From IMG/VR virus record IMGVR_UViG_3300031240_000002, positions 1 through 64,000 of that record: 64,000 nucleotides of DNA. One strand, 5' to 3'. A program made the position numbers and the translations under genes. Each line of letters starts with the position of its first letter. Within the stretch, counting starts at the first letter, position 1. This document shows, piece by piece, positions 39,472-63,280 of the stretch. Source of the DNA: a virus. The notes beneath the pieces were generated by a model. It was not told the origin of the DNA. It saw only the letters and a list, made by a program, of their open reading frames with translations, and made no database searches.

Positions 39472-41166
39472 TTATGCCGCTGCCGCGACGCTGGTCGGAA
39501 CCGTGACCGTCTCGCCGATCTCCGCGAGGAACATGATGTAGTCCATGCTCGCCAGCGTCTGGACGTAGACCTTCACCACGAAGATCCCGAGCGCCATCTG
39601 CGCGGCGGTGTTGCCCGAGACGTCGTCGACCAGGTAGTCGACGATCCGCTGCTGGGACGGGTCGTTCACCGACTTGAGGCTGTCGAGGAAGGTCTCGATC
39701 TCCTGGACGAACGCCTCTTGCCGGTCGGTGGTCGACGGCTGCTTCAGGTACGGCGCGGCGATGTCGCCGAGCGTGTCCTCGATGAAGTCGGCCATCCGGC
39801 GCCGCTTGATGGGCGTGCGGGTCGGGTAGAGGACGCTGTTGGCGGCCGTCACCCCTTGCATGAACTGCCAGCCGGCCTGGCGGTCGAAGTAGAGCGCGCA
39901 GACGCCGGCGGCGATGAGGTTGGCGTAGTCCTGCTTCGCCAGCGGGTTGAGGACGAACGCCTGCTCCGGAGCCGTGATCGCCTGAATGAACTGGTTCGCC
40001 GCCCCCGGGTTCACCTCCTGCGGGAAGTTGGACAGCGTCACCGCCATCATCCCGTCGAGGTTGATGGTGACCGCGATGTTGCCGAAGTCGGGCACCACGA
40101 TCTGGTGCTGCGGGTAGCAGATGATCACGCGGTCGGCCGGCTGCGGGTAGGCGTCCGCAGAGGCCAAGCCGATCGCGGCGGTGGTGGCGGCCGCCGCCTG
40201 GATAGCCGTGGTCCCCGCCGCGGGGTCGGCCGAGACGCAGCAGACGCGGGCCGGGCCGTTCCCGGAGGCGTTGTTGGCGTTCGCGCCGAGCGACTGGCGG
40301 ATCGCCTGGGTCCGACGGGCCGCCCAGATGACGTTGATCGAGGTGAGCGGATCCGCGTTGGGCAGCGTCGAGCTGATGGCCGCCGGGTACTGGCTGGCGA
40401 TGCGCGCGGCCAGCGTCGTCCCGGTGCCGCTCGGCCAGAGGATCGTGGCGTTGTTGACCGCCGTGATGGTGGTCGCCGGGTCTGCGTTCGGGATGACCGA
40501 GTCGAGCACGTTGACGATGGCCGTCGCGGCGGTGGCGACCACCGGCTCGACGACGAGGATCGGGAAGCAGTTGACCGCCACCGTGACCGCATTGCTGGTG
40601 ACGGTGGTCCCCTGCGGGATGGTGGTATTCCCGCTGGTCGCGAAGATGCGGGTCGACGCGGCGGCGGTGCTGGAACTCCCGAACCGATAGCCGGCGGGAA
40701 TGGTCAGCACCTTGTTGGTGAGGCCCGCGGCCTGGTCCGCCGCCGCCACCGTGACGGTGATGGTCAGCTGCCCCTTGGTGGTCCCGCCATCGGTCGTCAC
40801 GGCCTCGTGATCGACGCGGGCCAGGATGAGGCGCTGGAAGGTTTTGCCGAGCAGCTGGAGGCCGGCGTTCCCCTCGTAGGCGCTCGCGCCGGCGGCTCCG
40901 AAGATGTTGCCCTGGCGGCCGGCAGAGTCCTGCCCGAGGTAGGGGTAGATCGTCCCGTTCGCGGTGTAGATGGCCCGGTACTGGCCGTCCGACGTGACCT
41001 CGCTGGGACCGAACGGGCCGGCGATGAACTCGCCAACCAAGCAGGCCGCGCCAGGCTGCGTGCCGAGGACGATGTTCGGTCCGGTCAGATCGACGACGAC
41101 GATCTGGGGGACCGCCAGGATCTGGTTGAGCGGCGGGACCGAGGTCGTCCTGAGGAAGAAGGCCAT
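39472..41166 (-). CDS. tail sheath protein
   Basis: LVGEFIAGPFGP N-terminus; IKRRRMADFI...YLVDDVSGNT...GIFVVKVYV C-terminal sheath motifs. Confidence 0.9.
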   Translation of the reverse strand: MAFFLRTTSVPPLNQILAVPQIVVVDLTGPNIVLGTQPGAACLVGEFIAGPFGPSEVTSDGQYRAIYTANGTIYPYLGQDSAGRQGNIFGAAGASAYEGNAGLQLLGKTFQRLILARVDHEAVTTDGGTTKGQLTITVTVAAADQAAGLTNKVLTIPAGYRFGSSSTAAASTRIFATSGNTTIPQGTTVTSNAVTVAVNCFPILVVEPVVATAATAIVNVLDSVIPNADPATTITAVNNATILWPSGTGTTLAARIASQYPAAISSTLPNADPLTSINVIWAARRTQAIRQSLGANANNASGNGPARVCCVSADPAAGTTAIQAAAATTAAIGLASADAYPQPADRVIICYPQHQIVVPDFGNIAVTINLDGMMAVTLSNFPQEVNPGAANQFIQAITAPEQAFVLNPLAKQDYANLIAAGVCALYFDRQAGWQFMQGVTAANSVLYPTRTPIKRRRMADFIEDTLGDIAAPYLKQPSTTDRQEAFVQEIETFLDSLKSVNDPSQQRIVDYLVDDVSGNTAAQMALGIFVVKVYVQTLASMDYIMFLAEIGETVTVPTSVAAAA

Positions 41167-43917: not shown

Positions 43918-43928
43918 GATACTACGCG
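43918..43928 (-). promoter_or_regulatory. CGCGTAGTATC motif copy 8
   Basis: its TAG is the stop of 43922-44482; TAGTAT 8 nt before ATG 43910. Confidence 0.75.
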
Positions 43929-44482
43929 CCCCGCCCCGCCAGGAAGTCGTCGATCGCCTCCCGCACCGCCCGGTCGATCTCCACGGCGGCCAGTCTCAGG
44001 ATGTGGTGGGCGGGGAGACCCCGGGCCTTTATCTTGCGGGCGATGGCCAGCGCGATGCCCCACTGCTGGCGGGAGACCTCGACCTGCCGGTCGCTACGCC
44101 GCCGCGCGCCTCGCTGTATAGGACCGACCTGCCGTTGAGCCGGGCCGATGAAGTCGCGCCCGATCCCCTTGCGCTTCACCCACTCGAAGATGACGTCGAT
44201 CGGGGGCATTCGCTGGCCGGGCCGCCGCCCATCCTCGATGACCACGGCGTAGGGGGCGAAGTTGTAGGCGGTGGCGCCGAGCGGGATGTCGTCGAAGCGG
44301 AAGGACCGCCGGTAGGTGCCGCGGTCGACCGGGGCTCGCGCGAGGGCCGAGATCTCCTCCTGCACCGCGCGCGGCCCGTGCAGCTTCACCGTCTTCCGGA
44401 TGACCTCGACCGCCCCCGTCACCAGCTTGGCGTCCTTCTTCAGCTGGTCGTGGTAGCCCTCGTAGGTGAACTTCTGGCCCAC
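43922..44482 (-). CDS. HK97 gp10-like neck/tail completion protein
   Basis: APVDRGTYRRS...APYAVVIEDGRRPG...IARKIKARG. Confidence 0.8.
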   Translation of the reverse strand: MGQKFTYEGYHDQLKKDAKLVTGAVEVIRKTVKLHGPRAVQEEISALARAPVDRGTYRRSFRFDDIPLGATAYNFAPYAVVIEDGRRPGQRMPPIDVIFEWVKRKGIGRDFIGPAQRQVGPIQRGARRRSDRQVEVSRQQWGIALAIARKIKARGLPAHHILRLAAVEIDRAVREAIDDFLAGRGA

Positions 44483-47314: not shown

Positions 47315-47748
47315 GACTGAGCGCCCTCGGTCAACTCGGTCTTCTCCGCCTTCTGGCCGGCCTTCTTCGCGATCGGCGGCGGCAGATTCAGCTCCGCCTC
47401 GGGCACGTCGATGCCCATGTCGCGCAGCTCCTCGGCGCGCGCCACCGCCGCCTTCTGCTGGTCCACCCACCACCCCGGCGGGTCGATCGGCTCGAGCTTG
47501 CAGCCCCGGTTCTTCAGCGCCCGGATGTCGTACTCGGCCGCGCTGATCTCGTCCCCGAGGTTCAGGAAGAAGTCCCCCTGGGGTCGGTTGAACGGTCCGA
47601 TCTTGTTCGGCGCCTGGTGGTTCTTGGGGCCGTCGACGACCCGGAAGAACTCGACCGCCGTCTCCTTCCCCCCGGACTTCTTCAGCACCGGCTGCGCGGT
47701 GCGGGCGATGTTCCCTTCGGGCATGAGCGAGGCTGGTCTGGTCTTCAT
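47311..47748 (-). CDS. hypothetical protein (post-capsid)
   Basis: ATG 47748 with GGAGG SD. Confidence 0.7.
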   Translation of the reverse strand: MKTRPASLMPEGNIARTAQPVLKKSGGKETAVEFFRVVDGPKNHQAPNKIGPFNRPQGDFFLNLGDEISAAEYDIRALKNRGCKLEPIDPPGWWVDQQKAAVARAEELRDMGIDVPEAELNLPPPIAKKAGQKAEKTELTEGAQS

Positions 47749-47802
47749 CGGGTCGGTCCTCCAGCCCAAGAGCCTACCCCCGACCGCCGCCGGCGCGGGC
47801 AC

Positions 47803-47834
47803 AAAAAGAAACGGCCACACGAGGTGGCCGTCTC
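47803..47834 (-). terminator. intrinsic terminator
   Basis: GAGACGGCCAC-CTCGT-GTGGCCGTTTC followed by TTTTT. Confidence 0.85.
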
Positions 47835-48079
47835 AAACCGTCTGGCGATGCGTGGTTTAAATGGTCAGCGAACCAACGAATCAGTTGTGACCCAAGCATT
47901 TGACGCACGAAGCGTCCGCGTGCCCGACGCGATGGACCGCGCTCTTTCCTGACGGCTCGGCTGGCTCAGCGCTTGGCGACAGAAGTCGTGGCGCGTGTTG
48001 CCCACCGATACAGACGCTGCCGAAGCGGCGTCACTATGACCGGACAAGCCGGCCAAGACTTTGATGGTGTAGGCCATCT
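47803..48079 (-). ncRNA. candidate structured non-coding RNA (~280 nt), family unknown
   Basis: own TTGACC-N17-CATCCT promoter and terminator; multiple nested helices including a C(UUCG)G hairpin; the only ORF has atypical codon usage. Confidence 0.6.
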
Positions 48080-48086
48080 GGGGACG

Positions 48087-48115
48087 AGGATGGAGGGCGG
48101 CGGCGCGCTGGTCAA
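48087..48115 (-). promoter_or_regulatory. sigma70-type promoter for the candidate ncRNA
   Basis: TTGACC (48110-48115), 17 nt, CATCCT (48087-48092). Confidence 0.65.
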
Positions 48116-48123
48116 GCGTTCGC

Positions 48124-48432
48124 TCAGTGACAGTCGCAGTAGCGCGCGCCGACGCGGGCGAGGTTGCGGCATCCGGGCACGGCGCAGTCCCCGTCGGCCA
48201 GCCACTCGACCTCCAACCCCCGCAGCACGAACCGCCCGCGCTGCCCCCGGTGTCGCTCCCGCCAGAGGCGCAAGCGCGTCCCCTGGTCTCGCGAGCAGCC
48301 GCTGCAGGTCCCCGAGATCTGGTAGCCGCAGCGGGCCCGGTACAACGTGGCGCGGCAGGCGCGCGGCGGAGCGGCCCCCGACGCGAGGACATCGGCCTTC
48401 GTCCGCCCTGGGTGCTGCCCGTACCAGCTCAC
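48124..48432 (-). CDS. small Cys-rich hypothetical protein
   Basis: GTG overlapping the upstream stop; CSGC, CAVPGC...YCDCH. Confidence 0.55.
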   Translation of the reverse strand: MSWYGQHPGRTKADVLASGAAPPRACRATLYRARCGYQISGTCSGCSRDQGTRLRLWRERHRGQRGRFVLRGLEVEWLADGDCAVPGCRNLARVGARYCDCH

Positions 48433-49072: not shown

Positions 49073-49083
49073 GATACTACGCG
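49073..49083 (-). promoter_or_regulatory. CGCGTAGTATC motif copy 10
   Basis: its TAG is the stop of the HNH gene; TAGTAT 8 nt before ATG 49065. Confidence 0.75.
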
Positions 49084-49862
49084 GCCGGCGCGCCAGCGCG
49101 GAACGGCTCCGCAGCGCGGGCACGGATGGCGGCGGGGTCGTAGCCGTACCTCGCGCAGAAGACCTCCAGCGGCCGGTCCCTCTTCCGCGAGTTGCAGCTC
49201 CTGCAGGCGGGCACGATGTTGCCGCGAACGTGCGCCGCGCGCGCCCCGAGCTTCACCACCGGGTCGAGATGATCCATGGTCAGGTCTTTCCTGCGCTCCT
49301 TCCCGCAGTAGGCGCAGCACCAACCGAAAGCGTCGACCACCTTCTTCCAGTCCGCCCACGGGAACAGCGAGACGGGCACACCGAGTCGAAGCGCGACGTT
49401 GATTGGCTGGTGCTTCAGCATCGCCCGTCGCTCGCGTTCTCGCTCGCGGTGGTATTGCCGGCGCTCCGGTTTCTCGCGGTCACGTCTCTGGGCGGCGCGA
49501 CCCTTGGGCGACCGCGACCACTTCGCATAGCTCGCCTTGCGTCGATCGGGATGCCGAGCGTCGTAGCGCTTCGTTCCCTGGGCCGCCGAGAGCTTCGCCC
49601 TTTCGGGATTCGCTGCCGTCCATCGGTCGAGACGCTCTCGCGTCTTCCGCTGCCGCTCCGGATTCGCCCGGTAGTGGCGCGCGTCAGCTGCGGCTTTCTT
49701 CTTCGGGTTGGCCTTCTGCCATTCCACCGCCTTGATCTTCGTGCATCGAATGCAGTAGCCGCACCAGCCGTCATCTTTCTTCGACGGGTAGAAGTTGCCC
49801 TCGGCGACGAGGACGTCGCGACACCGCGAGCACTGCTTATTCCCATCCGGTCGGACGTTCAC
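49077..49862 (-). CDS. HNH endonuclease (intact)
   Basis: N-terminal CSRC..CIRC, Arg-rich helix, CAYC...TMDHLDP...GNIVPACRSCNSRK; GTG 7 nt after TAGTAT. Confidence 0.9.
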   Translation of the reverse strand: MNVRPDGNKQCSRCRDVLVAEGNFYPSKKDDGWCGYCIRCTKIKAVEWQKANPKKKAAADARHYRANPERQRKTRERLDRWTAANPERAKLSAAQGTKRYDARHPDRRKASYAKWSRSPKGRAAQRRDREKPERRQYHRERERERRAMLKHQPINVALRLGVPVSLFPWADWKKVVDAFGWCCAYCGKERRKDLTMDHLDPVVKLGARAAHVRGNIVPACRSCNSRKRDRPLEVFCARYGYDPAAIRARAAEPFRAGAPAA

Positions 49863-49868
49863 GCGACC

Positions 49869-49879
49869 GATACTACGCG
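49869..49879 (-). promoter_or_regulatory. CGCGTAGTATC motif copy 11
   Basis: exact 11-mer; TAGTAT 7 nt before GTG 49862. Confidence 0.75.
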
Positions 49880-49884
49880 GGGCA

Positions 49885-49919
49885 CAAAAGAAAACGGGCA
49901 CCCATCGGCACCCGTTTTC
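49885..49919 (-). terminator. intrinsic terminator after the major capsid gene
   Basis: GAAAACGGG...CCCGTTTTC followed by TTTT. Confidence 0.8.
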
Positions 49920-49943
49920 CTCGGCTATTTCAGCGCTTTTCGA

Positions 49944-51320
49944 TCAAGCACTGTGAACTACGCAGACCGCGCGCTTGAACGTGGCGGTCGTCGGCGGCGA
50001 GAGCTCGTCGGTCGGCACCGCCCAGTCGCCGCAAAACTGCCAGGTCGTGCTGGTGTTCTCCTGCAGCTTGTCGATGGGCGCACGCATGATGAGCCGGATC
50101 TCCTCGGTGATGACCTGGACGCCGTTGTTGGTCACGGCGAAGTCCCCGACCTTGCCCATGATGCCGGCCTGGCTGATGAACTGGCTCTGGTCGAGATACT
50201 TCTCCTCGATCCAGCCCTGGCCGGTGCAGATGGGCCGGCGCAGCTGGATGCTGGCGCCGTTGACCGTCTCGAACCCGTGGGTGTTCCCGTCGATCGGGTC
50301 CGGGTCGCAGGTCTGGACGGTGGGCGCCTCGTTGTTCCGGTAGAACACCGACTGCCCGAACACCCCCAAGCAGAAGCGCTTGTAGTGCACGTAGTCGGGG
50401 AGCGACTGGTTCAGACGCTGCCACTCGTTGTCCCCGAAGACCTGCAGCTCCGACTGGCTGTCGAGGTGCCAGTGGTAGAAGCCGTCCTCGTGGGCGGGGA
50501 CGTTGTTGTAGCGGAGGATCCCGATCGCCGTGCGGACGTCGCGCACCGCGAAGGTGTCCGAACTGTCGATGGCGTCGACCGACGTCCCGCCGCCCGAGTA
50601 GACGATCTGGCTCGCCTTCGACGTGATGACCGAGGAGCGGGCCGGGAGCGCGACGGCGAGCGCCGGCGTGATGGTGAGCGTCCCGCCGTGGATCGGGTCG
50701 CCAGCGGTGTCAGGCGCGGCCGCCGTGACCTGGCCGGTGTAGCCGATGCCGGGCAGCGAGATGTTGATCGGGTTCGTGCTCGACACCGGCTGCTGGCTCC
50801 CGCCGAACAGGTTGGTGGTGAACCCGGTCAGGTTGACGACGTGGATGGTCGTCGCGGCGCTGTTGGCCAGCGTGTCGGTCACCGTGTTGCCGGCGACGTA
50901 GGCGTTGTAGCCCTTGTCGCGAACCACGCGGTTCATCGACTGGCCGGCCTGGAGGCCCAGCTGGTGGATGTTCCGCATGAAGGCCGAGGCCAGCTGCAGG
51001 TAGCTGGTCGGCATGTTGGTGTCGATCGAGTCGTTCCACTTCATCGCGGTGGCCGACCACTGCTCGATGCCGTAGGTCTTCCCGACCGGGTCCACGCCAG
51101 CGACGGCGGGGCGGGTGCGGGGCTTGATCAGACCGGGCCGGGTGAACGTCGAGGTGCCGCCCAAGTGGGTCGGCCAGAGCTCGCGCATCGCTTCCATCCG
51201 GAACAACAGGTTCGGGAAGAGCGCGTCCCGAAACACGCGCTGGAGCGTGTTCGACTGGATCGTCGCAGCGATCGACGGGTTGAAGATTACCGGGATGCTG
51301 CCGTCGGGAAAGTTGGCCAT
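49944..51320 (-). CDS. major capsid protein
   Basis: 458 aa after a scaffold-like gene, strong promoter and terminator; LGLQAGQSMNR, VRTAIGILRYNNVP..DG.Y HK97-fold-like pattern. Confidence 0.85.
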   Translation of the reverse strand: MANFPDGSIPVIFNPSIAATIQSNTLQRVFRDALFPNLLFRMEAMRELWPTHLGGTSTFTRPGLIKPRTRPAVAGVDPVGKTYGIEQWSATAMKWNDSIDTNMPTSYLQLASAFMRNIHQLGLQAGQSMNRVVRDKGYNAYVAGNTVTDTLANSAATTIHVVNLTGFTTNLFGGSQQPVSSTNPINISLPGIGYTGQVTAAAPDTAGDPIHGGTLTITPALAVALPARSSVITSKASQIVYSGGGTSVDAIDSSDTFAVRDVRTAIGILRYNNVPAHEDGFYHWHLDSQSELQVFGDNEWQRLNQSLPDYVHYKRFCLGVFGQSVFYRNNEAPTVQTCDPDPIDGNTHGFETVNGASIQLRRPICTGQGWIEEKYLDQSQFISQAGIMGKVGDFAVTNNGVQVITEEIRLIMRAPIDKLQENTSTTWQFCGDWAVPTDELSPPTTATFKRAVCVVHSA

Positions 51321-54762: not shown

Positions 54763-55206
54763 CTACTCGTCGTCGTCCTTCTCGTCGTCGTCGTCGTCCC
54801 CGTCCTCGTCGTCCTTCTCGTCCTCTTCCTCTTCGTGATCCTCTTCGTGATCCTCGACGAGGTCCTCGATGTCCTTGGTCATGTCGTCGAGCTCGTCCTG
54901 GAGCTTCTCGAACTTCTTCTTGAAGCTCTTGTCCGAGTCGTCCGGGAGCGTCTCGCCCTTCAGCTTCTCGATCGCGTCTGCGACCCCCTGGAGGGCAGAG
55001 CATGCGCTGCATCCCGCAGCTTTGTCGGCGTCATCGCCTCCGCCCTGATCCCCGCCGCCTTCGTCACCGCCGCCGCCCTGGCCTTCGCCGTCGCCAGGAG
55101 GGCCTCCACCTCCAGGAGCGCCTCCGCCCCCTCCATGGTCACCACCGCCGGGACCGGCGTGCTTGCGAGAGCTGAGGAGGTTTCGGACCTGTTCCTTGGA
55201 CGCCAT
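54763..55206 (-). CDS. Gly-rich protein with a very acidic C-terminus
   Basis: poly-Gly tract, CSAC, D/E tail; start 7 nt after CATCCT. Confidence 0.7.
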   Translation of the reverse strand: MASKEQVRNLLSSRKHAGPGGGDHGGGGGAPGGGGPPGDGEGQGGGGDEGGGDQGGGDDADKAAGCSACSALQGVADAIEKLKGETLPDDSDKSFKKKFEKLQDELDDMTKDIEDLVEDHEEDHEEEEDEKDDEDGDDDDDEKDDDE

Positions 55207-55213
55207 GCCCCGC

Positions 55214-55243
55214 AGGATGGAGCCGAAGGGGAGTGAGCGTCAA
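55214..55243 (-). promoter_or_regulatory. sigma70-type leaderless promoter
   Basis: TTGACG-N18-CATCCT-N7-ATG. Confidence 0.6.
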
Positions 55244-57282: not shown

Positions 57283-58215
57283 TCACGAGGACGCCAGTCC
57301 TCTTGTCGTGGGTTTCACGGGGCCCGCCGGTGCCACCGTCTCCGGGTTGCCCCACGCCGATTGCCAGGGAATGCAGAGGCTTCTGTCGTTTGGTCTGTTT
57401 GGTCCTTGCATCATTCGGACGATCTTGCCGGTCGGGCGCCCCTTCGAATCCTTCACGACCCACACGAACGGTTGGTCGACCGGCACCGTCTGGCCGTCCA
57501 GATCCTTGGAGTCGTCCCCCTCCCGATCGTCCCGCGTCTCGACCCAGCGCTTGAGTAGCTTCGGCATGGACATCCGAAAGCCCTCCATCGCTCTCTGCGT
57601 CGTCACCCCGGCTGCGTGCGAGAGCTCGGTCCTGCATACCCTCTCTGCCCGCCAACGCTGCCCATCGAACGTCCCTCCCGCCTTCACCAGTCGGTCGACC
57701 GCCTGGTCCACCGTCTCCCCCTGCACCAGGGACCGGGAGAGCCCGTCACGGATGGACAGGAGCGCCTGGGGCCCGTAGCGCTTGGCGCTGTCGCGGTAGC
57801 GCTGGAGGAGCGTGGGGGCGACGCTGGGGTAGACGCCGCGGACCACCGCAGCCTGCTCGGCAGCGATGACGGGGGTCATGGCGCCGCGGGCCGTCTCGAC
57901 CCTGCCGATCATCTGCGCCACCTGGCGCGGCGCCACTACCCCGGCGAGCTGCCCCGTCTGGTGGAGGTGCTCGCGGAAGGGGGCTTCGAAGTTGCGGAGG
58001 GCCTCGACGACCTGGGCGAGCACCAGCTGCAGGTGGACGGCGGCGAAGGTCTGGCCCTTGCCGTCCCGCTTGAGGGAGGCGAGGCGGTCTTCGAGCTCGG
58101 TCCGGGAGGAGGCGTAGATGCCGCGCAGGCGCCCGACGCCGCGGACCTCGATGATGCCGGCCAGCTGGGCGCGGTGGAGCGCCACGATCTCGCGGATGAG
58201 CGGGCTGACGGCCAC
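57283..58215 (-). CDS. head morphogenesis protein (SPP1 gp7/Mu gpF-like)
   Basis: RAERVCRTE...KRWVETRDDR...LDGQTVPVDQPF...RPNDR. Confidence 0.85.
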   Translation of the reverse strand: MAVSPLIREIVALHRAQLAGIIEVRGVGRLRGIYASSRTELEDRLASLKRDGKGQTFAAVHLQLVLAQVVEALRNFEAPFREHLHQTGQLAGVVAPRQVAQMIGRVETARGAMTPVIAAEQAAVVRGVYPSVAPTLLQRYRDSAKRYGPQALLSIRDGLSRSLVQGETVDQAVDRLVKAGGTFDGQRWRAERVCRTELSHAAGVTTQRAMEGFRMSMPKLLKRWVETRDDREGDDSKDLDGQTVPVDQPFVWVVKDSKGRPTGKIVRMMQGPNRPNDRSLCIPWQSAWGNPETVAPAGPVKPTTRGLASS

Positions 58216-61215: not shown

Positions 61216-61505
61216 CAGCAGGGGATCCAGCGGCCGTCTTTGACGAAGCCGTGGTGGCCGCAGGCCCGGCAGAGCAACGACGGCGAGACCGTCAGCGGCT
61301 CCAGCTTATCGAGCGTCCATCCGCGCGCTCCGTCGTCGAGCGGGATGAACCCGAGCGCCTCTTTCCCGTCCTTGCACGAGTGCCAATAGTCGAAGCCGGA
61401 CAGCTTCCCCGCCAGCGATGGGTCGATCCCGGGAGCGTCCTTCTCGGTCGGGTAGTAGCAGATCGAGATCGTGACGCCGTGGCCGATGTCGACGCGCTCG
61501 CTCAC
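61215..61505 (-). CDS. DUF6527-like zinc-binding protein
   Basis: W...LTVSPSLLCRACGHHGFVKDGRW; GTG overlaps the portal stop. Confidence 0.7.
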   Translation of the reverse strand: MSERVDIGHGVTISICYYPTEKDAPGIDPSLAGKLSGFDYWHSCKDGKEALGFIPLDDGARGWTLDKLEPLTVSPSLLCRACGHHGFVKDGRWIPC

Positions 61506-63280
61506 GGCTGGCCGCCCTGGCCGGCGCCGGGGCTGTTCTGGCCGTCCCCGTCCTGCTCCGACTGCGTCCCCTCGACGACGGTGCGCTCCATTTTTACGCC
61601 GCCCTCGAACCCGGCCAGCGCTCGCTCCGCCTGCTCCTGGCTCTCGGCGTTGGCGCCGGCCACCTCTGCCTCCACGTCGGTCACGCCGAAGAGGGGAGCC
61701 ACGCGGGTGGCGGCCGTCACCTGGGTGATGAGCCGCGAGGCGTTCGCCGCGGTGCTGTTCTGGATCATGTCCTTGATGTCGTTCTCGGTGGGGGGGAAGT
61801 AGGGCCCCCACTTGAGGCTCATGTACCCGCCGGCGCCGAGCTTCTGGGGTACGAGCTCGTCGGTGGCTTGGCCGTCTGCTGCGGGCGCGCGGCGCATCGG
61901 CATGTCCAGCTTGAACTTCCCGATCCGCGTCTGCCCGTCCTCGCCGTCCGGGAGCTGCACCGGGGCCTCGGCCTTCTTCCCGATGAGCACCACGATCTTC
62001 ATCACCTCGACGATCGCGTCCCCATACTGGCCGCGGAGGTCGTCGCAGCGGGAGATCATCGGGGCATAGCGGAGCTCGATCGCCTTGGCGCTCTGGCTGT
62101 TGGCGATGTCCTGGTCGTCGGGGAAGACGGCGCCGGTGATCTCGTCGATCTGGCTCTCCAGCTTGTCGGAGACCTTGAGCGCCATCTCGATGCCAGACCC
62201 GGTCATCTCCATGTACCGGGCCGAGCCCTGGAGGCCGACCTCCATCGCGAAGTCGGATCCCTTCACCATCGCCCCATTGCCGTCGACTACGTGGGGATCC
62301 GTCGAGGTGATGACGGTGGGATCGCAGTTGGCGAGGGTGGCGTAGTTCGCCTGAGAGATCAGGCGGTCGTTCGTGTCGATCGTCTCGAAGGCCCCCTCGC
62401 AGTCGGCGCCGCCGCCGTCCTCGTCCTCCTCATCGGCGATGTTCTGGATCCAGGTGCCGGGGAAGACGCCGAGCCCGTGGTGCAGGGAGAGCTGGGGATC
62501 GATCGTCCATGCGTTCGCCGGGTCCGCCTTGGCGGCGTCGACCGTGATCTCGGTGTACCGGATGTCGTCGTTCTCCGTGATGATCCGACGGACCAGGTAC
62601 TCGACCTGGCGGATGCTCCCGTCGGGCTTGCCGTCGTCGTCAGCGCCGGGCTCCGTGCGGAGCGTCCGATACATGAGCAGCACGCCGCGGAGGCTCCAGT
62701 TGCGCTTGTCCTTCCAGATCTTCACCGCGACGTACTTGGCGTTGTGGACCTCGAAGACCCAGCGGCTCTCGACGACGTGGACGGTCATCATGACCGAGCC
62801 CATGCCGCCGCCCTTGTTGCGGGCGATCCGCATCGATCGCCAGAAGCGGCCCGCCTCCCTGACCGCGTCCAGGTAGTCCTCGGTGTCCGCGTCCTGCTCG
62901 ACCTTCACCTTGGGGATTCGCTGGGAGCTGAAGAGCATGTCAGTGAAGCGCTGGGTGGTGGTCTTCGCCTTCCGGGTGGGGGCGGTCGGGCGCTTCTCGC
63001 GCGCGGTCTTCTTCGGCGACTCGCCGCCGCTCGGCTGGGTGCCGGCGGGGAAGAGAACCTCGGGCGAGATCGTTTCCAGCGCGTCGGCGCGGTCCCCCCA
63101 CCAGTCGGTCTTCTGGTGGTCGTACTCGAGTGCGCGGGCGAAGGCTTCCTTCCGGTCGAGCCTCGCGTAACGCTCGGTGACGTCGAAGACCGCCCGCTGC
63201 TGGAGGAGCTGCACCACCTGCTGGTCGGTGGGGACGAACGCTGTCGGCGCTGGGGCGCCCTTGATCGTCGTTGCGGCCAC
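61502..63280 (-). CDS. portal protein
   Basis: 592 aa at the start of the head module; HGLGVFPG.WIQN, ARYMEMTGSG, QSAKAIELRYAPM. Confidence 0.85.
   Translation of the reverse strand: MAATTIKGAPAPTAFVPTDQQVVQLLQQRAVFDVTERYARLDRKEAFARALEYDHQKTDWWGDRADALETISPEVLFPAGTQPSGGESPKKTAREKRPTAPTRKAKTTTQRFTDMLFSSQRIPKVKVEQDADTEDYLDAVREAGRFWRSMRIARNKGGGMGSVMMTVHVVESRWVFEVHNAKYVAVKIWKDKRNWSLRGVLLMYRTLRTEPGADDDGKPDGSIRQVEYLVRRIITENDDIRYTEITVDAAKADPANAWTIDPQLSLHHGLGVFPGTWIQNIADEEDEDGGGADCEGAFETIDTNDRLISQANYATLANCDPTVITSTDPHVVDGNGAMVKGSDFAMEVGLQGSARYMEMTGSGIEMALKVSDKLESQIDEITGAVFPDDQDIANSQSAKAIELRYAPMISRCDDLRGQYGDAIVEVMKIVVLIGKKAEAPVQLPDGEDGQTRIGKFKLDMPMRRAPAADGQATDELVPQKLGAGGYMSLKWGPYFPPTENDIKDMIQNSTAANASRLITQVTAATRVAPLFGVTDVEAEVAGANAESQEQAERALAGFEGGVKMERTVVEGTQSEQDGDGQNSPGAGQGGQP

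Follow-up and report, generated by a model that had tools for sequence, protein, structure and literature searches.

The late leader of phage lambda, or '6S RNA', is a 194-nt transcript that starts at the PR' promoter, ends at the tR' terminator and accumulates as a short RNA; we know of no need for a conserved fold in this leader, which acts through protein Q at the promoter. The put RNA of HK022 (about 70 nt, two stem-loops) is one of the processive-antitermination RNAs, of which EAR is another example. In the S10 leader, which works with L4, the last hairpin of a structured RNA and its U-tract terminate transcription before the genes, and the regulator is encoded downstream. The packaging RNA (pRNA) of phi29, an Rfam family, binds the portal and the packaging ATPase. 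Orphan phage RNAs include Mu-gpT-DE (downstream of Mu-like major head genes), GOLLD, ROOL and HEARO, all of which are in Rfam. Furthermore, 8,495 structured-RNA candidates, 29-151 nt long, have been reported from IMG/VR (PMC10690425). The RNA described here (~275 nt in the sequence analyzed and ~220-285 nt in its relatives) is longer than these candidates; it is set apart from them by length alone, and a shared sub-motif is possible.

The analyzed stretch of DNA (hereafter the window) comprises the first 64 kb of an IMG/VR virus record that is 87.7 kb long. It has a G+C content of 68% and carries nearly all its genes on the minus strand. Its gene content (PHROGs and Pfam), which also includes a tape-measure-like protein, is that of a contractile-tailed, uncultured phage Table 1. 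The RNA element is placed at the head/neck boundary of the virion gene module. From 48135 to 47740 on the minus strand, the order is the stop codon of a small Cys-rich ORF, the promoter, ~275 nt without any convincing gene, the terminator and d144. A first reading, made from the sequence only, had placed the RNA next to the capsid gene; this is right only in a loose sense, as the RNA is separated from the end of the capsid gene (49944) by three small ORFs as well as the HNH gene. As in the lambda late leader, a promoter, a non-coding transcript of 200-300 nt (a leader of the ~200-nt class) and a strong terminator thus lie just upstream of virion genes. However, the lambda leader precedes all late genes, whereas this RNA lies in the middle of the module.

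Table 1. Positions of the features of the window that are discussed in the text (A6, alignment of six sequences by covariance model)
Feature	Position	Strand	Remarks
Portal	61502-63280		PHROGs/Pfam
Head-morphogenesis protein	57283-58215		PHROGs/Pfam
Major head (capsid) protein	49944-51320		PHROGs/Pfam
HNH endonuclease	49077-49901		PF01844, E = 4e-9; ~1 kb upstream of the RNA
-35 element TTGACC	48110-48115	-	read in the sequence; kept in relatives
-10 element CATCCT	48087-48092	-	17 nt from the -35 element; kept in relatives
70-codon open frame inside the RNA	47865-48077	-	judged not to be a gene
H1, 5'-terminal hairpin GAUGG-N6-CCAUC	48063-48078	-	stem invariant in 5 lineages
H2, hairpin, 7 bp, loop CUUGU	48037-48055	-	100% paired; two-sided changes in 4/7 pairs in A6
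H3, hairpin, UUCG loop	48013-48032	-	covaries; dispensable module
Domain II	47957-48008	-	long irregular hairpin with internal loops
H4	48008-48000 with 47965-47957	-	conserved G.A mismatch; two-sided changes in 5/8 pairs in A6
H5	47994-91 with 47972-69	-	two-sided changes in 3/4 pairs in A6
H6, UUCU/UUCG loop	47988-77	-	two-sided changes in 1/3 modelled pairs in A6
Domain III	47837-47956	-	junction with H9, H10 and H11, closed by H7 and H8
H7	47956-48 with 47845-37	-	two-sided changes in 6/8 pairs
H8, irregular	47944-36 with 47856-47	-	two-sided changes in 6/8 pairs
H9	47931-17	-	two-sided changes in 2/4 pairs
H10	47916-02	-	two-sided changes in 4/5 pairs
H11	47892-63	-	two-sided changes in 8/10 pairs
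Candidate pseudoknot	47893-47926	-	H9 loop (47926-21) with the strand just 5' of H11 (47898-93)
Intrinsic terminator	47801-47834	-	11-bp G+C-rich stem (47834-47808), 5-nt loop, UUUUU/U-tract
d144, 145 aa	47311-47748	-	Shine-Dalgarno GGAGGA; first gene of the neck-gene block
Neck1/tail-completion protein	43922-44482		PHROGs/Pfam
Tail sheath	39472-41166		PHROGs/Pfam
CGCGTAGTATC motif, 5' ends	885, 4468, 4610, 8667, 14958, 16901, 28663, 43928, 46984, 49083, 49879, 56557, 59299	-	

Relatives, sought with the capsid protein and the protein encoded downstream of the RNA in IMG/VR, JGI metagenomes and GTDB genomes, revealed five further lineages: L002 (whose capsid protein is 96% identical to that of the window), L012, L015, L005 (with L003 and L004) and L007 (with L014). 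The carriers form a small clade of ~87-kb uncultured phages, and in all lineages the element is found at one and the same place, between the capsid module and a d144 homologue. This homologue comes directly after the RNA in L002, L012, L005 and L007, so that the RNA and d144 are adjacent in five of the six lineages; in L015, the RNA terminator is followed first by two ORFs and a CGCGTAGTATC motif and only then by d144. These two inserted ORFs (L015:1388-2072) are Cys-rich, and an HNH-like Cys/His motif was read by eye between d144 and the next conserved gene of the same contig (L015:~2890-3495). The genes upstream of the RNA vary between lineages, an HNH gene being found there in the window only. 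The RNA thus seems to be part of a fixed core, with HNH-type and accessory genes moving around it.

Outside these loci, no match to the RNA was found by blastn among 50,697 phage records, and the relatives of the capsid protein in the same records are only 27-32% identical. Exact-pattern scans of IMG/VR gave nothing beyond the loci already found. The host probably belongs to the Myxococcota, the sole clue, and a weak one, being that the 87,962-nt contig of L015 was binned with a single uncultured Myxococcales MAG. BLAST over 401 sampled Myxococcota genomes and a covariance model run over 151 sampled ones found the RNA only in the MAG with the phage contig. Weak BLAST matches in 10 Myxococcota genomes (E ~1e-4) were discarded, the four that were inspected being G+C-rich coding sequence, as was one additional covariance-model match of 21.7 bits, which is at chance level.

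The sequence-only reading had proposed that the RNA is bracketed by a TTGACC-N17-CATCCT promoter and a strong terminator. Both are present: the promoter is kept in relatives and the terminator was found by a scan for hairpins followed by U-runs. The promoter elements are retained in every lineage whose contig extends far enough, with an invariant TTGAC[CG] in L002, L015, L005 and L007, a spacer of 17-18 nt and a NANNCT -10 element (CATCCT, GATCCT, GAACCT or CAAGCT). The spacer itself is free to vary, 6 of its 17 positions being already changed between the window and L002. Judging from these elements, the promoter is of the sigma-70 type and its position is conserved, although a strict scan for the sigma-70 consensus made no call at 48115. 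From the distance to the -10 element, the transcript would start at ~48078-48080.

Clean terminators comparable to that of the RNA are rare, only two or three being found on the minus strand in the 64 kb; the two cleanest are the one of the RNA and the one that follows the capsid gene (~49925-49890). In L012 and L015, another hairpin (GGGCCC-UUCG-GGGCCC) lies at the position of the RNA terminator, and the terminator stems of the window, L012 and L015 have no sequence in common. Since these hairpins of the window-group members are unrelated in sequence, it is the 3' end itself that appears to be conserved, rather than a switch. In L005 and L014, a distinct terminator hairpin is lacking, and U7-U8 comes directly after the 3' arm of H7.

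The terminator of the capsid gene in the window (49890-49925, minus strand) has a U-tract followed by GTGCCC(C)GCG, closely resembling the tail of the RNA terminator, and this likeness may reflect the insertion or exchange of a block comprising the HNH gene and small ORFs. The capsid terminator of L002 differs and does not resemble the tail of the RNA terminator. In L007 (L007:7460-7560), a strong terminator comes after the capsid gene, and TTGACG-N17-CATCGT follows at once in front of an Ala-rich ORF of 163 aa, showing that the arrangement of a terminator followed by a TTGAC promoter recurs in the clade.

The phage uses at least two types of promoters, the CGCGTAGTATC motif and intergenic cTTGAC[CG] sites. 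The former is found in 13 exact copies in the window, all on the coding strand, for 0.6 expected, and in the copies that were read, such as that of the HNH gene, its TAGTAT lies 7-8 nt before the start codon. It is also found in relatives (after the capsid terminator in L002 and ~2067, before d144, in L015), and a variant, GCGCGTAATATC, is found at ~888 in L012. Throughout the clade, this motif seems to serve as a promoter of leaderless accessory genes. The promoter of the RNA is one of the few intergenic cTTGAC[CG] sites of the window, and its -10 context, CTCCATCCT, is shared with one other site only, 55243, likewise intergenic. This second site (TTGACG-N18-CATCCT; 55205-55243, minus strand) is followed after 7 nt by the ATG of a highly acidic protein of ~147 aa that is rich in Gly; given this distance between the -10 element and the ATG, the corresponding mRNA would be leaderless.

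Taken by itself, the sequence folds no more than modestly better than shuffled ones (z = -2.1), and the main support for the fold is, from the alignments, comparative. Comparison of the window with L002 alone already reveals two hairpins with two full compensatory swaps each, one of which is H6. In an alignment of the four alignable sequences (A5; MAFFT, with a structure drawn by hand), 91% of the cells pair and 20 pairs show two-sided changes, compared to 8.6±2.1 in column shuffles (none of 500 as high) and to 0-3 after sliding the partners by 1-3 columns. The covariance model R1, derived from A5, found a single copy in the window and also found the distant elements of L014 and L005 (E = 2e-12 and 1e-11, respectively). 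When six sequences were aligned with this model (A6), 94.7% of the pairs were canonical and 44 of 78 showed two-sided changes (18.1±2.8 in shuffles, 0/500 as high; 5-9 in slid controls). Being fitted to the model, A6 leans towards the structure; however, an artefact is argued against by the slid controls and by the MAFFT result, which is independent. The alignments cover six or seven distinct sequences, leaving out the contigs related by d144 (P0002, P0003, P0006, P0007; Logan, NCBI), and the covariation statistics are therefore descriptive. The conserved G.U pairs, such as the first pair of H7 (6/6 sequences), fix the strand of the RNA as minus. Furthermore, the window and L002 differ by 0.085 in the RNA, compared to 0.21-0.27 at the four-fold sites of the flanking genes, which points to purifying selection at the nucleotide level. 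Altogether, these comparisons indicate that the RNA structure is under selection.

The fold comprises 11 conserved helices and a candidate pseudoknot. Three hairpins (H1-H3) make up its 5' part; they are followed by domain II, where H4, H5 and H6 form one long irregular hairpin, and by the multi-branched domain III, which a long-range helix closes Table 1. Four of the helices initially read in the window (48063-48078, 48013-32, 47917-31 and 47902-16) are borne out by covariation or conservation. Two others (48052-61 with 47983-92 and 47971-76 with 47892-97), although complementary in the window, break in relatives and clash with the covarying H2, H5 and H6, by which they are displaced. The pairing of the pseudoknot is possible in every lineage (86% of the cells compared to 69% in shuffles, 1/500 as high, and to 19-58% in slid controls), with two-sided changes in three pairs; it is proposed with moderate confidence from this pattern.

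The fold is modular: L014 lacks both H1 and H10, L005 lacks H10, and H3 is removed in the X21 contig by a listed 23-nt deletion (48013-48035). The same deletion of H3 is inferred in X22 and X24, in which the loose end past 48012 reads as H2. In the H1 loop (48065-48072, minus strand), five of the six bases differ between the window and L002 while the stem is untouched, to be set against a difference of 21-27% at the four-fold sites of the neighbouring genes. This loop could be a specificity determinant or could have undergone a multi-base replacement; no covarying partner was found for it in the part of the genome shared with L002.

A 70-codon ORF (48077-47865) does exist within the RNA, as first reported, and a small protein could be considered, translated perhaps from a leaderless mRNA. 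Its AUG, located in the invariant GAUGG, lies 8-10 nt past the -10 element in every lineage that has H1, the spacing of the other leaderless genes of the phage, and opens a frame of 60-87 codons in all five of these lineages. However, long open frames are expected at 68% G+C. The peptides of L012, L015 and L005 are unrelated after about five residues, indels shift the frame, and the shared first residues (M-[AV]-x-x-I) are dictated by the H1 stem. L014 lacks the hairpin that carries the AUG, and the product has no match in Pfam or PHROGs. Between the window and L002, the amino-acid difference (0.18) exceeds the difference at four-fold sites (0.05), which is the reverse of the pattern of a coding sequence, and the substitutions occur as compensating pairs. 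The conservation of the frame had been set as the observation that would speak against a non-coding RNA; what is found is the opposite, base pairs being kept by compensatory changes and the frame not. The pattern of change indicates that this ORF is non-coding, a small protein gene being highly improbable, and the annotation is corrected accordingly: gene callers would give a 70-aa 'hypothetical protein' at the RNA.

A comparison with Rfam 15, which includes tmRNA, 6S, RNase P, SRP, group I and II introns, T-box, riboswitches, HEARO and pRNA, gave no match in the window at the gathering thresholds and none at E <= 10 in 47500-48400. For the loci of L012, L014 and L005 at E <= 1, it gave only a chance snoRNA match elsewhere. 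ARAGORN found no tRNA or tmRNA gene in the whole window, in line with the earlier remark that the RNA lacks tRNA or tmRNA ends. Group I intron, retron, guide RNA, T-box and K-turn were dropped as candidates, there being no Rfam match, flanking exons, nearby enzyme gene or defining loops. The description as an undescribed phage non-coding RNA thus stands: the RNA is non-coding and structured, has its own promoter and terminator, and matched no known family in the Infernal-type check that had been suggested. Like the orphan phage RNAs, it has a conserved structure found by comparison and, like Mu-gpT-DE, it lies after the capsid gene; unlike them, it falls outside the Rfam families, none of Mu-gpT-DE, GOLLD, ROOL and HEARO matching it. 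This RNA probably represents a new family of structured non-coding RNA.

What this RNA does was considered from its sequence, its neighbourhood and its traces in RNA libraries. Its position among the virion genes and its TTGAC-type promoter suggest that it is co-expressed with them. The retention of the promoter, the presence of a rare terminator exactly at the end of the RNA and the uncoupling from d144 in L015 point to an autonomous unit. Its size, long-range helices, conserved internal loops and putative pseudoknot argue for protein binding or another three-dimensional function rather than for antisense; when all start regions were screened with RNAduplex for mRNA targets, only meaningless long G+C duplexes came out. 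We give about even chances to the reading that it is a discrete, abundant, trans-acting phage RNA expressed from a stand-alone gene. The RNA would be transcribed from its own TTGAC-type promoter and ended by its own terminator, and the terminated transcript, abundant and stable, would be the functional product. It would act in trans, probably by binding one or more proteins as a scaffold or a decoy and not as a simple antisense RNA, while a minority of polymerases would pass the terminator and help to express the low-copy neck genes downstream.

An autonomous promoter and a terminator inside a late operon are also the layout of a 'moron'. However, no match to tyrosine (PF00589) or serine (PF00239) recombinases was found in the complete 87.7-kb record, which makes a moron expressed from a prophage unlikely.

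In a k-mer index, DNA of the RNA locus was found in ~20 rhizosphere or soil metagenomes, and the locus was also found in two metatranscriptomes from different studies, one of soil and one of peat. Each metatranscriptome yielded one short contig (186 and 196 nt, 90-99% alike). These contigs lie only on the RNA (47864-48009 and 47827-48012) and cover neither d144 nor the upstream ORFs, which is no proof that these genes are silent, whereas contigs from DNA runs continue into d144. These short contigs hint at an abundant discrete RNA, although they cannot show its ends and DNA carry-over is possible.

According to another reading, the element is a cis-acting leader: the promoter at 48115 would be the operon promoter of the neck and head-completion genes (d144 to ~43922), and the fold and terminator would form a regulated attenuator or antitermination site. 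Read-through would be set by a phage or host protein, possibly d144 itself (autogenous control), or by the RNA itself as for HK022 put, and the short RNA would be a by-product, like the lambda 6S RNA transcribed from PR' to tR'. In five of the six lineages, the order is indeed promoter, ~220-280-nt leader, terminator and a conserved gene on the same strand; clean terminators are rare in the window, and the downstream genes encode low-copy neck proteins (Neck1 match). In the window, the start codon of d144 (47748) lies 57 nt beyond the RNA terminator. In L007, the Shine-Dalgarno sequence of d144 begins 4 nt past the U-tract; in L005, ~30 nt separate the U-tract from the start codon and no promoter was seen there by eye. 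There is therefore no room for a separate promoter in L007, and probably none in L005, and d144 must be transcribed through the RNA in these lineages. Furthermore, as the helix that closes domain III in L005 and L014 itself runs into U7-U8, RNA folding and termination would be physically coupled in them.

Other observations do not favour the cis-acting leader. The d144 gene of L015 has its own CGCGTAGTATC motif and is uncoupled from the RNA, and in the window group a conserved TAGNNT element ~22 nt before the start of d144 may be a promoter of its own. The contigs from RNA libraries stop short of d144. A structured domain does lie directly upstream of an intrinsic terminator, as in a riboswitch or attenuator platform, but no conserved mutually exclusive antiterminator pairing was found by eye, nor any conserved upstream complement. 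A GACGG repeat could compete with the terminator in the window but is not kept in L012 or L015, and in L007 a local hairpin overlaps the 3' arm of H7 (both read by eye). The Q antiterminator families PF06530 and PF03589, out of diverse Q proteins, have no match in the 87.7-kb record; PF06323 has none either, but its control also matched nowhere. The element thus differs from the lambda late leader by these two Q families not being found, by its variable promoter spacer and by its heavy covarying fold. Like put and EAR, it is a nascent RNA folded just past a promoter and before a terminator; it is, however, three to four times larger than put, with long-range helices, and we know of no sequence likeness to either.

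The S10 leader offers a parallel for autogenous control, as here too a structured RNA ends in a terminator hairpin and a U-tract upstream of genes. The d144 model, however, resembles no known fold, and binding of d144 to the RNA is a conjecture. The d144 family shows a motif (YD..L.N.G..L....PGW) after a variable, basic, Pro-rich N-terminus (alignment A7) and matches no Pfam or PHROG family; its Atlas scores (<=0.81) are at chance level. Its AlphaFold model (mean pLDDT 65, with a small beta-rich core at pLDDT ~80) has no BFVD match at E <= 0.001 and reaches at best Z 3.9 over 48,161 PDB representatives. Overall, a cis-acting leader is the main rival reading, less probable than the stand-alone RNA. 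It does not exclude the stand-alone RNA: a stable terminated RNA with leaky read-through would satisfy both.

The RNA had also been proposed to be a partner of the nearby HNH nuclease, i.e. a partner or cargo of a mobile endonuclease cassette. In the window, the HNH gene lies 1 kb upstream of the RNA and the tails of the capsid and RNA terminators are alike. However, L002 keeps the RNA with neither this likeness nor an HNH gene between the capsid gene and the RNA, L005 and L007 likewise keep it with no HNH match nearby, and in L015 the HNH-like motif seen by eye lies downstream of d144 instead. Since relatives keep the RNA without the nuclease, this link is rejected as very unlikely.

A packaging or assembly RNA and a sponge for host proteins, both named as possible roles in the sequence-only reading, are possibilities as well. 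A role in virion assembly, as a structural or motor cofactor docking on the portal or neck for packaging or head completion, was considered on indirect pointers: the gene lies exactly at the head/neck boundary, and its promoter is of the same TTGAC type as sites upstream of the head, capsid and sheath genes. Like phi29 pRNA, the element is a phage-encoded structured RNA of a few hundred nucleotides whose sequence diverges fast while the fold is kept, protein binding being here a proposal. Unlike pRNA, it belongs to an ~87-kb myovirus-like phage and has no Rfam match up to E 10. A partner of the H1 loop that would make a covarying intermolecular loop pair like that of pRNA was sought in those regions of the genome that L002 also has, and none was found. 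Such a cofactor seems unlikely.

When an RNA is large and has many conserved helices as well as a pseudoknot, it usually has specific work to do (catalysis, sensing or as part of a ribonucleoprotein); few such RNAs are known from phages. The present RNA, under strong purifying selection and with a fixed place in the virion module, comes from a phage group without any cultured member. A trans-acting RNA would be a new tool with which the phage targets a protein of the host or of the virion; a cis-acting one would be a new RNA device that sets the ratio of head to neck proteins. Either way, it is a defined element that can be synthesised and tested.
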